From a virus: a stretch of DNA of 64,000 bases. Within the stretch, counting starts at the first letter, position 1. The number at the start of each line of letters is the position of its first letter. The translations under genes and the position numbers were made by a program. Below are positions 1,856 through 12,980 of this stretch, one piece after another. Where the stretch lies: the IMG/VR virus record IMGVR_UViG_3300047553_000733, positions 1 through 64,000 of that record. The stretch is one strand, 5' to 3'. A model generated the notes under the pieces. The model worked only from the letters and a program-made list of their open reading frames with translations. It was not told where the DNA came from and searched no databases.

Positions 1856-2164
1856 ATGACCGCCGAAGTCAACAAGGTTAACTACACACCTGAGCAAACG
1901 CTTGAAGTAGTTAGCAAGTACCAATCGGGTATGCCCGTGGAAATGATTGCTCGCGAAATGGGCAAAACCACTCGCAGTATCGTTGCCAAGCTCTCGCGCG
2001 AGGGCGTTTACCAAGCCAAAACCAAAGCCGCTCAACCTCGTGTTAAGAAGGCAGATCTGGTCGACAAGCTAGCACAAGCTTGCGGTGTCCCGGCTGAACA
2101 GTTTGAGTCGCTTGAAAAAGCTAACTTGGACGTACTGGAAGCACTTGCTACCAAGCTGGCGTAA
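1856..2164 (+). CDS. T5 A2-like DNA-binding protein (paralogue 2)
   Basis: Clear paralogue of 912-1238; own promoter TTGAAC-18-TATAAT at 1794-1823. Confidence 0.75.
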   Translation: MTAEVNKVNYTPEQTLEVVSKYQSGMPVEMIAREMGKTTRSIVAKLSREGVYQAKTKAAQPRVKKADLVDKLAQACGVPAEQFESLEKANLDVLEALATKLA

Positions 2165-2196
2165 GCTAGCGCGGTTTAGGGTCAAAAAATTCTGAC

Positions 2197-2225
2197 TTGA
2201 ATTGAGACCCTAAATCCTATATAAT
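2197..2225 (+). promoter_or_regulatory. sigma70 promoter for ncRNA-1
   Basis: TTGAAT-17-TATAAT; GACCCTAAA motif in the spacer and an inverted copy upstream. Confidence 0.75.
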
Positions 2226-2232
2226 AGATATA

Positions 2233-2409
2233 TCGCAGTCGGGAAAGATAAACAAAATTAACCAGACCCATTACACCGCAAATCAGTCACTGTTAGTCGA
2301 CACACCTGTAATGCTCATGGTCTCTTTAATCCCAGTAGTCTGTTTGTTATAGCCACTACTTCAACCTAATAAAATCTTAGTAGTCCAGTGCTATTAACAA
2401 CGATTGCGA
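2233..2409 (+). ncRNA. candidate structured RNA, about 177 nt (ncRNA-1)
   Basis: Begins at predicted TSS; 5' TCGCAGTCG pairs with 3' CGATTGCGA; internal arms AGACC/CATTACA..TGTAATG/GGTCT and ATAGC/ACTACT..AGTAGT/GCTAT; no ORF. Confidence 0.6.
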
Positions 2410-2419
2410 AATTTTTTAC

Positions 2420-2449
2420 TTGAACTATAAAGCTGTTTTGTTATATAAT
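2420..2449 (+). promoter_or_regulatory. sigma70 promoter for ncRNA-2
   Basis: TTGAAC-18-TATAAT. Confidence 0.75.
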
Positions 2450-2630
2450 ATATTTATAGTTTGATGAAGGGTGTAAGCGGTCACCGAGCAAATCACGGTG
2501 ATACTACTTAATTGTTGGGAAGCTAATCGCCGAGCAACAGCCCGTTACAGTTTATGGGTGTTATGAGCCTGGCGTATTTGTCCAGATAACAACTTGATTG
2601 GTGGCGAAGCCTCTACCACCAGCCCCCTAA

Positions 2631-2732
2631 ACCCTCTGATGAGTGCCCTGCAATGGGCCGAAACTCTAAGCATCGTGTCTAGTTGCTGACAGACTTCAAA
2701 ACTGCCACCTAGATGCACCTTAGGGTCAGGGT
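2631..2732 (+). ncRNA. type I hammerhead ribozyme
   Basis: Stem I ACCCT/AGGGT; CTGATGA core; stem II G(T)GCCC/GGGCC; GAAA; stem III CTCTAAG/CTTAGGG; GUC cleavage triplet at 2725-2727. Confidence 0.85.
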
Positions 2733-3117
2733 ATGAACCCAGCACATTGGCCTGTGGCCGCTGGTAATAGTAATACCCAACCGCTTTAACACGGTCGGCG
2801 GGATACAAGTGGATTGTACTCCGGAGAAAGAACTCCTTAAAATACAGCCATCTTCTAACACAAGAGCCTCGGCAGAGGTAATGCAAGTCTGGAGTCTTGC
2901 TGGCGCTAGGTATGGTGTGAACATACCACAACGACCCTAAACTGCGGAGGGTGCGTATAATATATCCAGTCAGAGACAACTGCACTAAACCGCTAGCAAA
3001 TGCGACAACCTATGTTACCGCACGGATATCGCAAGCACTGGAACTGTAGCGACTGAAACGTGCGCGGCTCGCGAGCCACAAAAACACGCTGTTTAGCTAA
3101 ATCACTGTGACGTGTTC

Positions 3118-3153
3118 AAAAGCCCCTACTACCGGCAGGTAGTAGGGGCTTTT
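3118..3153 (+). terminator. intrinsic terminator (bidirectional shape)
   Basis: AAAAGCCCCTACTACC-GGCA-GGTAGTAGGGGCTTTT. Confidence 0.9.
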
Positions 3154-3267
3154 GTTTTGGTTTTTACAATTTAGGGTCCAAAATTTTAGCGCTGCTGCGC
3201 CAATTATACAGTGCTAAACCTTGTTTGTCAAGTGGATTTTCTTGAAACTGACCCTAAACCGCAAAAA

Positions 3268-3301
3268 ATAAAGCCTACTTAGCAAAACTAAGTAGGCTTT
3301 T
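3268..3301 (-). terminator. intrinsic terminator of the leftward unit
   Basis: AAAGCCTACTTAG-CAAAA-CTAAGTAGGCTTT just after the 3318 stop. Confidence 0.8.
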
Positions 3302-3317
3302 GGCGTTATTGGGTGAG

Positions 3318-3635
3318 TTAAGTGCAATTGCCTTGGTTTAGGGTCAGTTTTCGTTCCAACAAAACCAGCACCCCTTTGTTTACCTTCTCCAAGCTCTCCA
3401 GTTGGTCGCTGGGGACGTCCAGAAGCTCAGCAAGGCGTTCGATATGCTCCGATTTTTTCACTGGCAGCTCACCACGCTTGTTGAGGTACTGTTTTTTCTG
3501 GTACACGCCCAGACTGCTCAGCTTAGCAATTATGCTACGTTCAGGTACTTCCAGCTCAACTGCAAGCTGCGTTACTGGTATACCGCCTTTATAGTCCTTG
3601 ATCAATTTATCTGTTACTTCTTTTGTGTATTTCAT
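3318..3635 (-). CDS. T5 A2-like DNA-binding protein (paralogue 3)
   Basis: MKYTKEVT...LAVELEVPERSIIAKLSSLGVYQKK...LESLEKVNK aligns with the other two paralogues. Confidence 0.7.
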   Translation of the reverse strand: MKYTKEVTDKLIKDYKGGIPVTQLAVELEVPERSIIAKLSSLGVYQKKQYLNKRGELPVKKSEHIERLAELLDVPSDQLESLEKVNKGVLVLLERKLTLNQGNCT

Positions 3636-4411
3636 AGCCATGGCATTGCAAATGTATCTTGTTTAGGTTGTGTTTGTTCAGGTACTGTAAAAATCTCACT
3701 AGTAACTAGTGGTTCGGGCATCAAATCCCAGTTAATGGGATCTAAGATCATGTATTTAGTGCGCTTGCTGGGGTGTGCTATCCAGATTTGAGTAAGCATC
3801 GACTGTGTTAACTTGGGGAGTGTGCCTAGCTTGGTATGCTGAATGCCTGTTAGTGCCCAAGTACTTTCGGCAGGCTTCAATTCACCTGCCTTCTTGCCCG
3901 ATTTATTCATCAAGCCTTCACTTCTGATTGCCAGCAACTCCTCTGACCCTAAATCGCCAACAACTTGCAGTTGCTCCGCACTCAAGTTCACTGCCTCCAA
4001 GAGTTTAGGTTCTAGTAAGTACTCCAAGTGTTTTAGACCCTGCCAGCTCCCATAAGGTACGTCTTTGTAGAGCTTAAACCCCATTAGTATAAGTGGGGTA
4101 AACTGTGCGTACTGGGGGTGTTGTGTTTGGCTGGGCAGTAGTAATGACCTGGTAACCCTGCTGAGCTTCCACAACCCCTGCAGTTTAGGGTCCTGGCCAA
4201 CGTTGTGCTTGAGCGTGGCTAAAATATCCCAACGATCGCCAGAGTCTTTGACCAGCTTCCAGGTGCCAAAGTGTGCAACCAGCTGTGGCAGCAACCATTG
4301 GTGAAGTGGGGCAATATGCTCCTGTTTGATCCATTGCTCCAGCTCTACTTGACTCATGCTATTTATTGTGCTTAGTGGCAGTTCAAATATGTCTTGCTTT
4401 TTTAATATCAT
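3632..4411 (-). CDS. hypothetical protein (about 259 aa), coupled to A2 paralogue 3
   Basis: Long ORF; stop overlaps next start (ATGA); leftward promoter at about 4612-4642. Confidence 0.75.
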   Translation of the reverse strand: MILKKQDIFELPLSTINSMSQVELEQWIKQEHIAPLHQWLLPQLVAHFGTWKLVKDSGDRWDILATLKHNVGQDPKLQGLWKLSRVTRSLLLPSQTQHPQYAQFTPLILMGFKLYKDVPYGSWQGLKHLEYLLEPKLLEAVNLSAEQLQVVGDLGSEELLAIRSEGLMNKSGKKAGELKPAESTWALTGIQHTKLGTLPKLTQSMLTQIWIAHPSKRTKYMILDPINWDLMPEPLVTSEIFTVPEQTQPKQDTFAMPWL

Positions 4412-4457
4412 TTTTAAATTTAGTGGTTTGATTTTAGACGCAATTATCCTACTTATT

Positions 4458-4585
4458 AGTTGCACTTAGCCTTTGGTCTTTGACCCTAAACTTACAAAAA
4501 TTGCTGTAATTAAGGGGCCCTCGTGTATCGTCCCTTATTACTAGCATTTTGTGTTGTTTAGGTCAACAACCACGGCTGTGCAACT
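4458..4585 (-). other. about 128-nt rod-like imperfect hairpin in the 5' leader
   Basis: Nested pairings AGTTGCAC/GTGCAACT, AGCC/GGCT, TTGACC(C)TAAAC/GTTTAGGTCAA, ACAAAA/TTTTGT, TAAGGG/CCCTTA. Confidence 0.65.
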
Positions 4586-9902: not shown

Positions 9903-10146
9903 TGACCCTGAACCGCAGTAGTTGCAAGAAACAACTCAAATTGCTTTAAAATTCTGCATCGAAGCCAAGGCCAGCAAGCTGCGGCGGGACAGCTAGAATG
10001 AATGTAGCGTAATTCCCATTGCTGTGGGGTGCTACCGACCCTACCTAAGGGTAGGGTCACTCAAGCTAATCAATAGTGGTTGGCTTGATTGACCCTAAAC
10101 CGCGGTGCCCTATGGGGCCGCACTAGTTTGCCTAAAAGGAAACGCA
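9903..10146 (+). promoter_or_regulatory. structured 5' leader of hsp20 (possible thermometer/ncRNA)
   Basis: Series of hairpins; last (GTTT-GCCT-AAA-AGGA-AAC) covers the RBS; two motif copies. Confidence 0.45.
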
Positions 10147-12904: not shown

Positions 12905-12980
12905 GTCCCGTTCATCTAGTGGCCAAGGATAGTGCCCTTTCACGGCATTCACGCGAGTTCGAATCTCGCACGGGACGCCA
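12905..12980 (+). tRNA. tRNA-Glu(UUC)
   Basis: Cloverleaf, loop CTTTCAC, CCA. Confidence 0.95.

Follow-up and report, generated by a model that had tools for sequence, protein, structure and literature searches.

Theta (HDV-like) ribozymes adjoin phage tRNAs and cut at their own 5' edge, making the tRNA 3' end, and RiboJ, a synthetic insulator derived from a plant satellite RNA, is placed before mRNAs. Hammerheads are known from phage intergenic regions, for example in PaP3 and Bcep176 (Perreault et al. 2011, PMC3088659), and ROOL and GOLLD are large ornate RNAs associated with phages (Weinberg et al. 2017, PMC5737381; cryo-EM preprint 10.1101/2024.12.08.627333). In the left terminal repeat of T5, untranslated repeat regions have been described as DNA elements with DnaA boxes (bioRxiv 10.1101/866236).

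The locus described here shares features with each of these systems. With the type I hammerheads of bacteria and phages (RF00163 and its clan) it has in common the core, the three-stem junction, the open stem I and the GUC triplet. It differs from them in the 48-nt, two-helix, co-varying insert with a conserved loop on stem III, in a stem I of 3-6 bp, in obtaining no score from an Rfam hammerhead model even at E values up to 10, and in being integral to a structured RNA of 0.7-1.3 kb, whereas the known elements lie between protein genes. Like ROOL and GOLLD, this RNA is several hundred nucleotides long, highly structured, phage-borne and often beside tRNA genes; unlike them, it matches the Rfam models in neither sequence nor structure, and neither of the two has been described with an embedded hammerhead. 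As with the theta ribozymes, a ribozyme of a self-cleaving type directly follows a phage tRNA in four relatives, but it belongs to another ribozyme class and its predicted cut lies ~95 nt downstream of the tRNA. The likeness to RiboJ and other engineered insulators is one of working only and implies no family membership: a hammerhead at the 5' end would, by predicted cleavage, strip the leader given by the promoter and leave a fixed 5'-OH, while the present element, unlike RiboJ, is natural and precedes a non-coding RNA. Like the T5 untranslated repeat regions, finally, the locus is a kilobase of conserved, non-coding sequence rich in inverted repeats, which adjoins A2-type genes and lies between convergent early units; unlike them, it has covariation at the RNA level, a ribozyme, a promoter and a terminator. 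Judged from sequence comparison, the ribozyme is a real, conserved hammerhead of a new structural variant that heads an uncatalogued structured phage RNA.

The window, the whole stretch of 64,000 nucleotides that was analyzed, spans positions 1 to 64,000 of a linear IMG/VR virus record of 102 kb with an estimated completeness of 96%. The phage had been regarded as T5-like in the first-pass annotation, and this affiliation holds: its DNA polymerase shares 49% identity with the polymerases of Demerecviridae, and the genes flanking the non-coding RNA (ncRNA) match phrog_1725, a family that covers the annotated A2 protein, adjoining A1 and dmp, of the T5-like Vibrio phage VPT02. The source phage is best placed as an uncultured, distant T5-like phage from a lake, and the family to which it belongs is one of T5-like phages of lakes, rivers and estuaries. 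Rfam recognizes eighteen tRNA genes between 12112 and 21520, a cluster typical of T5-like phages. No end repeats were found in the linear record, in which the ncRNA locus is single copy; in related contigs the locus lies at varying positions.

Three HTH paralogues near the ncRNA match phrog_1725 (E values of 9e-9, 6e-5 and 6e-4), and a fourth conserved gene follows them:

786-1238, + strand: A2-like HTH paralogue (phrog_1725)
1856-2164, + strand: A2-like small HTH DNA-binding protein (phrog_1725), directly upstream of the ncRNA
3318-3641, - strand: A2-like HTH paralogue (phrog_1725), convergent with the ncRNA
3632-4465, - strand: 277-aa protein beside the ncRNA, conserved in 16 loci

The A2-like family is present in 25 of the 28 homologous loci. 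A tblastn search with one of the paralogues gave no match in cultured phages, indicating that the relation to A2 is remote. The conserved gene order runs from a 232-aa unknown protein through a PQ-loop protein, an SprT-like protease, small proteins and two A2-like genes to the non-coding region, which is followed by a convergent A2-like gene and then by an unknown protein of 265-277 aa. In the window, this 277-aa protein has no Pfam or PHROG family, no useful lead from the protein atlas and no tblastn match in cultured phages, and its all-helical model (pLDDT 73) has no fold match in the PDB. No RNA-related protein (ligase, nuclease or reverse transcriptase) was found as a conserved neighbor of the homologous loci. 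Given the setting among A2-like genes, early expression in infection is plausible. Within the coding region of the 277-aa gene (4185-4240, - strand), a hairpin GACCC...GGGGUU with UCAGCAG after it is similar to the ncRNA's pseudoknot units.

The non-coding unit had been described as bracketed by a promoter and a terminator, both of which are recovered by a sequence scan. Together with the domains between them, and leaving the ribozyme to a separate list, they are placed as follows:

2420-2449, + strand: sigma-70-type promoter (TTGAAC, 18 nt, TATAAT, with an upstream T run), from the scan and conserved in homologues
2456-2630, + strand: 5' domain of the ncRNA, from nhmmer alignments
2728-3160, + strand: predicted 3' product, a conserved structured RNA, from homologue alignments and an MFE z-score of -3.6
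2823-2914, + strand: three-hairpin block, from RNAalifold on 10 homologues
2932-2992, + strand: GACCC hairpin unit (ACCCU 2934-2938 with AGGGU 2948-2952), A/U-rich linker and CAGU...ACUG hairpin
3020-3063, + strand: conserved CACGGAUAUC, a variable co-varying hairpin, then GACUGAAACGUGC, from nhmmer alignments; the source of an independent search pattern
3117-3154, running on to 3160, + strand: intrinsic terminator (17-bp stem, loop of 4, T run), from the scan

The promoter block in the homologues reads TTTTTTACTTGA, then 17-18 nt, then TATAAT, and we infer a transcript start near 2456. The terminator is bidirectional in form and is kept in relatives as GUUCAAAAGCCCC...GGGGCUUUUGUUUUG. In agreement with the earlier claim that the unit is non-coding, its longest sense ORF has 43 aa, no ORF is shared by the relatives, and tblastx similarity among them is equal in all six frames. 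Two other candidates were rejected: a 146-aa antisense ORF (2545-2985), which is not conserved and recurs only as short fragments in changing frames, and a tRNA-like origin of the RNA, no tRNA or tmRNA being found in 2100-3400. A search of the window and nine homologous loci for ROOL, GOLLD and the other large RNAs catalogued in Rfam returned only tRNAs and terminator-hairpin noise, blastn of the ncRNA against cultured phages found no similar DNA, and searches of the literature yielded no description of this RNA or of a hammerhead beside a phage tRNA-Glu. We take 2456 to ~3160 as a single non-coding transcript with a strong promoter and its own terminator, uncatalogued and structured.

Two further promoters lie close by. 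A second small non-coding unit is located upstream (2197-2410), with its own promoter (2197-2225) and a transcript start near CAGUCGGGAAAG; this promoter, 360-410 nt before the hammerhead, and its start are conserved in many relatives. On the - strand, a perfect consensus promoter (TTGACA, 17 nt, TATAAT; 3203-3231) fires toward the terminator at 3117-3154, with no ORF between them.

The 5' domain contains the conserved blocks GGGUG.AAGCGG, CUUAAUUGU.GGGAA, CCGAGC.ACAGCCC, UGGGUGUUAUGAG and GAUAACAACUUGAU, plus a hairpin; the fold z-score of the 5' product, 0.1, is uninformative. The downstream RNA has a conserved start, AGGACGAAA.CCC, and its length of ~430 nt in the window is the shortest observed, compared with 450-800 nt in relatives; the whole structured RNA spans 0.7-1.3 kb across the family. 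The block at 2823-2914, which includes a hairpin at 2883-2900, has the invariant single strands AAAUACAGCYAUCUUCUAAC and GUAAUG, and with its closing helix it comprises 16 pairs, eight of which show compensatory changes (RNAalifold, 10 homologues). The most conserved stretch of the RNA is 2932-2992. In relatives, the GACCC/GGGUC units form H-type pseudoknots, in which the loop pairs with sequence past an A-rich linker, and the pseudoknot pairings are kept by clear compensatory changes: CUGCACA/UGUGCAG, CUGCUGA/UCAGCAG, AACUGU/ACAGUU and AAUCGU/ACGAUU.

Within this unit, the first-pass annotation had reported a hammerhead core at 2631-2732, and direct reading of the sequence confirms that every element is in register:

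2631-2732, + strand: type I hammerhead ribozyme, from core, stems, covariation and descriptor match
2631-2635 (ACCCU) with 2728-2732 (AGGGU), + strand: stem I
2636-2642, + strand: core CUGAUGA
2643-2659, + strand: stem II, with closing pair G2643-C2659, U2644 bulged, and GCCC 2645-2648 paired with GGGC 2655-2658
between the strands of stem II, + strand: loop II, UGCAAU, capping stem II
2660-2663, + strand: GAAA, with A2663 as position 15.1
2664-2670 (CUCUAAG) with 2719-2725 (CUUAGGG), + strand: stem III, with one U-G pair
2671-2718, + strand: 48-nt structured insert on stem III, two co-varying helices in relatives
2726 and 2727, + strand: U2726 as position 16.1 and C2727 as position 17, by hammerhead numbering
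2727/2728, + strand: predicted self-cleavage site between C2727 and A2728, by hammerhead numbering

With A15.1-U16.1 counted, stem III has 8 bp (2663-2670/2719-2726). The topology is type I, with stem I open and stems II and III capped, and the core residues of the hammerhead are all in place (C3 U4 G5 A6 N7 G8 A9, G12 A13 A14, A15.1-U16.1, H17). A descriptor was built that asks for CUGANGA, GAAA, H17, a stem II made of its closing pair and four more pairs, at least 6 bp in stem III along with A15.1-U16.1, and no fewer than 4 bp in stem I; it matches the window once (2636-2727), as against no match in 500 dinucleotide shuffles, both strands being searched. The Rfam search that had been proposed as a check did not detect this core with the catalogued models: the hammerhead families (RF00163 and its clan) gave no match at gathering score in the window, none on 2350-3250 at E values up to 10, where only noise on the terminator hairpin appeared, and none on nine homologous loci at E values up to 0.5, where only tRNAs were reported. 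The models miss the element probably because of the 48-nt structured insert in stem III. Their failure bears on the catalogued families and not on the hammerhead class, to which we assign the element by core, fold and topology, with self-cleavage predicted.

Relatives of the unit were gathered along three routes. A search with a neighboring 214-aa protein led to 80 viral contigs, in three of which nhmmer finds the whole non-coding unit, and a pattern based on the ribozyme gave 28 stretches. To avoid circularity, the third route used a pattern from the 3' domain without contact with the ribozyme; it is loose, with at least 116 matches, mostly random, among which nhmmer identified 12 loci as true relatives, yielding six further distinct homologues. 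In total, 28 distinct homologous sequences are found in related phage contigs. The hammerhead is present in every homologue whose sequence extends to its position, including all six reached through the 3'-domain pattern; in some homologues from this route, stem III is of a form that the first ribozyme pattern excluded, for example with C-G in place of U-A.

The homologue alignment also shows the covariation that the first-pass annotation had named as a check. Run without guidance on the plain MAFFT alignment (A1), RNAalifold finds all three stems; in this alignment 80.6% of the cells pair, and for 22 of 31 pairs both sides have changed. An alignment made with a covariance model (model R1; alignment A3) has 87% of cells paired and double changes in 24 of 31 pairs, figures that are given alongside those from MAFFT because A3 is fitted to the model. 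The covariation score of A3 is 0.53 versus 0.175 when shuffled, and slid registers reach at most 40% paired. By helix, double changes occur in four of five pairs of stem I, four of five of stem II and four of eight of stem III (A3), and in the helices of the stem III insert (4 and 5) they affect 7/8 and 5/5 pairs, respectively. In relatives this insert folds into two helices, of 8 bp and 5 bp, topped by a conserved apical loop (UUCCCA or CUUCAA type). The phage's own genome contains a single match to model R1 (87 bits), and two cultured Demerecviridae genomes give noise only (11-13 bits).

Stem I is 3-6 bp long in the family, most relatives having just 3 bp. A tertiary contact between stem I and loop II is usual in fast natural hammerheads; none was established among the homologues, in which loop II (UGCAAGU type) and a 3' extension of stem I (ACGAAA) are conserved. 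Two other candidate contacts, between loop II and an upstream ACUUG block and between the stem III apical loop UUCCCA and UGGGAA of the 5' domain, were set aside as pairings without covariation.

The letters of the catalytic core are constant in all 28 sequences, with only the free position N7 varying (U/C), and the GUC triplet is likewise invariant (28/28). Much of the core was fixed by the collecting patterns; the three relatives found by nhmmer and the 3'-domain set also carry it. Could the fold be conserved but catalytically idle, as a structural three-way junction or a relic? The short stem I, the candidate tertiary contacts without covariation and the RNA contigs that bridge the cleavage site would all fit such an element. 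Against this, an invariant core in 28 diverged sequences, free only at N7, is expected for catalysis and unneeded for a junction, and we consider an idle fold very improbable.

What is constant across the family is the ribozyme, the start and body of the downstream RNA, and the terminator. The upstream part differs among relatives. The window and six other loci (L083, L095, L109, L110, L126, L145) have a 5' domain of ~180 nt upstream of the ribozyme, with a promoter-to-ribozyme distance of about 186-199 nt. Two loci (L093, L189) have a promoter that ends about 92-105 nt before CUGA, and in two more (L090, L129) it ends ~30 nt before CUGA, leaving a leader of ~25 nt and a transcript from which the 5' domain is absent. 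Nine homologues have the 5' domain plus a tRNA-Glu(UUC), the sole tRNA inside homologous transcripts just before the hammerhead, and in the first four listed here stem I lies 0-3 nt past the CCA of the tRNA:

L084, 663-738: tRNA-Glu(UUC) before the hammerhead
L092, 1239-1314: tRNA-Glu(UUC) before the hammerhead
L166, 10812-10886: tRNA-Glu(UUC) before the hammerhead
L195, 7280-7354: tRNA-Glu(UUC) before the hammerhead
five more loci: tRNA-Glu(UUC) before the hammerhead

The tRNA-Glu gene of the window is instead found within the tRNA cluster (12905-12977).

Because the upstream part is variable while the ribozyme and the downstream RNA are constant, we read the hammerhead as a device for 5'-end maturation and insulation of the downstream structured RNA, a reading that presumes cleavage in vivo and to which we give a probability of roughly 0.6. 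The hammerhead at 2631-2732 would fold as soon as it is transcribed and cut after C2727. Hammerhead cleavage leaves a 2',3'-cyclic phosphate on one product and a 5'-OH on the other. The two predicted RNAs, of ~270 nt and ~430 nt, agree with the pair of about 270 nt and 400 nt proposed in the first-pass annotation: a 5' product of ~272 nt would carry the 5' domain and the ribozyme body and end in the cyclic phosphate, and a 3' product of ~430 nt would start with a 5'-OH at A2728. With a type I cut, the upstream product would retain the ribozyme, the downstream RNA would keep no more than 3-6 nt of stem I, and since stem I has only 3-6 bp, the downstream RNA would drop off after the cut. The pseudoknot-rich 3' RNA would in this way obtain a defined 5'-OH end regardless of whether the 5' domain, tRNA-Glu or a bare promoter lies upstream. 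Such an end is expected to slow 5'-end-dependent decay, so that the 3' RNA would be the stable species.

The ribozyme might conversely serve the upstream RNA, releasing the 5' domain or the tRNA-Glu with a 2',3'-cyclic phosphate as its cap; the downstream RNA would then be secondary. The tRNA-Glu(UUC) between 5' domain and hammerhead in nine homologues, the close approach of stem I to its CCA in L084, L092, L166 and L195, and the strong conservation of the 5' domain blocks would fit such a role. However, cleavage by a type I hammerhead falls on the 3' side of the ribozyme, which would give the upstream RNA a ribozyme tail of ~95 nt and the tRNA no mature end. Furthermore, the hammerhead is kept where only a promoter and ~25 nt precede it (L090, L129), and also in the absence of a tRNA, for example in the window. 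We therefore regard service to the upstream RNA as unlikely and retain maturation of the downstream RNA as the preferred reading.

Two further arrangements of these elements occur among relatives. On IMGVR_UViG_3300043436_004120 (100 kb), the set of tRNA-Glu, hammerhead and 3' RNA is found twice in diverged form, ~0.5 kb from either end (L106, 1-1557; L097, 85419-100412); the two copies may represent true paralogues, terminal repeats that are imperfect, or strains mixed at a circular junction. In L090 (3948-8028), the hammerhead RNA heads a tRNA island ending in a phage-borne tmRNA (tag ANDEVFALAA).

The stretch is present in 20 public runs of nine studies (freshwater, estuary and river), seven of the 20 being RNA libraries. 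Contigs from four metatranscriptome runs of three studies lie on 2383-3104; for the predicted 3' product, the coverage by RNA-library contigs is 2657-3104. Contigs of relatives' RNA have only 2927/2933-2989/2992 in common with the window. Contig depth, which is one figure per contig, rises toward the 3' part, and the flanks are thinly covered. In three runs, RNA-library contigs bridge 2727/2728, so uncut RNA or DNA carry-over exists; contigs show neither ends nor levels. Loose contig ends at 2593 and 3075 are adapter-like.

The 8-mer GACCCTAA, of which the cleavage-site strand is the reverse complement in 19 of the 28 homologues, recurs throughout the window, with 22 copies (e.g. at 10091, 13860, 22970, 35104 and 52638) versus 1.3 expected and an extended consensus tGACCCTAAAc. 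Between 2176 and 4841 there are 11 copies, each opposite in orientation to the one before, and promoters are enclosed by the inverted pairs 2176/2206 and 3171/3250. Of the 11 copies past 10 kb, 10 lie on the + strand, irrespective of which way the genes run. Relatives' loci are enriched for the motif about 25-fold. It may serve the A2-like proteins as an operator or be some other strand-specific signal in the DNA.

The first-pass annotation had proposed that cleavage is switchable, the cleaved strand UUAGGGUC (2720-2727) pairing alternatively with GACCCUAA (2933-2940) and thereby blocking the hammerhead fold. The downstream 8-mer is indeed present and has perfect 8-nt complementarity with UUAGGGUC in the window, and both 8-mers occur in 19 of the 28 homologues. 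In the other nine, however, the site differs (UGAGGGUC, UUGGGGUC, CUAGGGUC or ACGAGUC), and none of them has a matching complement downstream; seven of the nine keep GACCCUAA unchanged. In addition, GACCCUAA has a local partner, GGGUC, in a hairpin or pseudoknot unit, and in most relatives a further copy of UUAGGGUC lies 170-310 nt downstream of it, inside the 3' RNA (the further copy of the window is at 3171-3178, just beyond the terminator). The 8-mer is, moreover, a genome-wide motif conserved for other reasons, and the hammerhead is transcribed ~200 nt ahead of the competitor strand. A switch of this kind is highly improbable, and of the original reading we keep the conserved hammerhead in a non-coding unit of a T5-like phage and treat the pairing switch as unsupported.

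The same motif raises the question of whether the region is mainly a cis-acting DNA element, an operator or repeat cluster of GACCCTAA between convergent early units, with the RNA as a by-product. The 11 alternating copies with inverted pairs around promoters, the enrichment in relatives' loci and the A2-like DNA-binding paralogues on both flanks would suit such an element, and T5-like phages have conserved untranslated repeat regions beside A2 (bioRxiv 10.1101/866236). These T5 regions occupy the same relative place, so a role of the motif cluster at the level of DNA deserves serious consideration beside the RNA reading, yet it leaves the RNA covariation unexplained: compensatory changes in the helices of the hammerhead and the 3' domain show selection on RNA structure, the unit has a strong promoter and terminator, and RNA-library contigs lie on it. 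As the main role of the region we judge a DNA element improbable. The DNA-element and RNA readings are nonetheless compatible with each other.

For the mature 3' RNA released under the preferred 5'-end maturation reading, our guess, held with low confidence, is that its repeated GACCC hairpins and pseudoknots bind protein, the RNA serving in trans as a scaffold or decoy. A more specific and rather doubtful extension is that the 5'-OH RNA released by the hammerhead represents a new class of large pseudoknot-rich phage RNA, on a par with ROOL and GOLLD, whose repeated GACCC units would imitate the genome-wide GACCCTAAA sites or compete with them, titrate the reader of that motif, perhaps the flanking A2-like proteins, and so time the early program of T5-like phages in lakes.

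The locus adds to the phage repertoire an uncatalogued family of structured RNAs of 0.7-1.3 kb, present in RNA libraries and set among A2-like early genes and a dense 8-mer motif. Since curated hammerhead models miss variants with a long insert in stem III, surveys would undercount them. For the role of hammerheads in phages, the architecture of this family offers an answer that can be tested: one and the same structured RNA invariably follows the ribozyme while the sequence upstream changes, which points to maturation of the 5' end.
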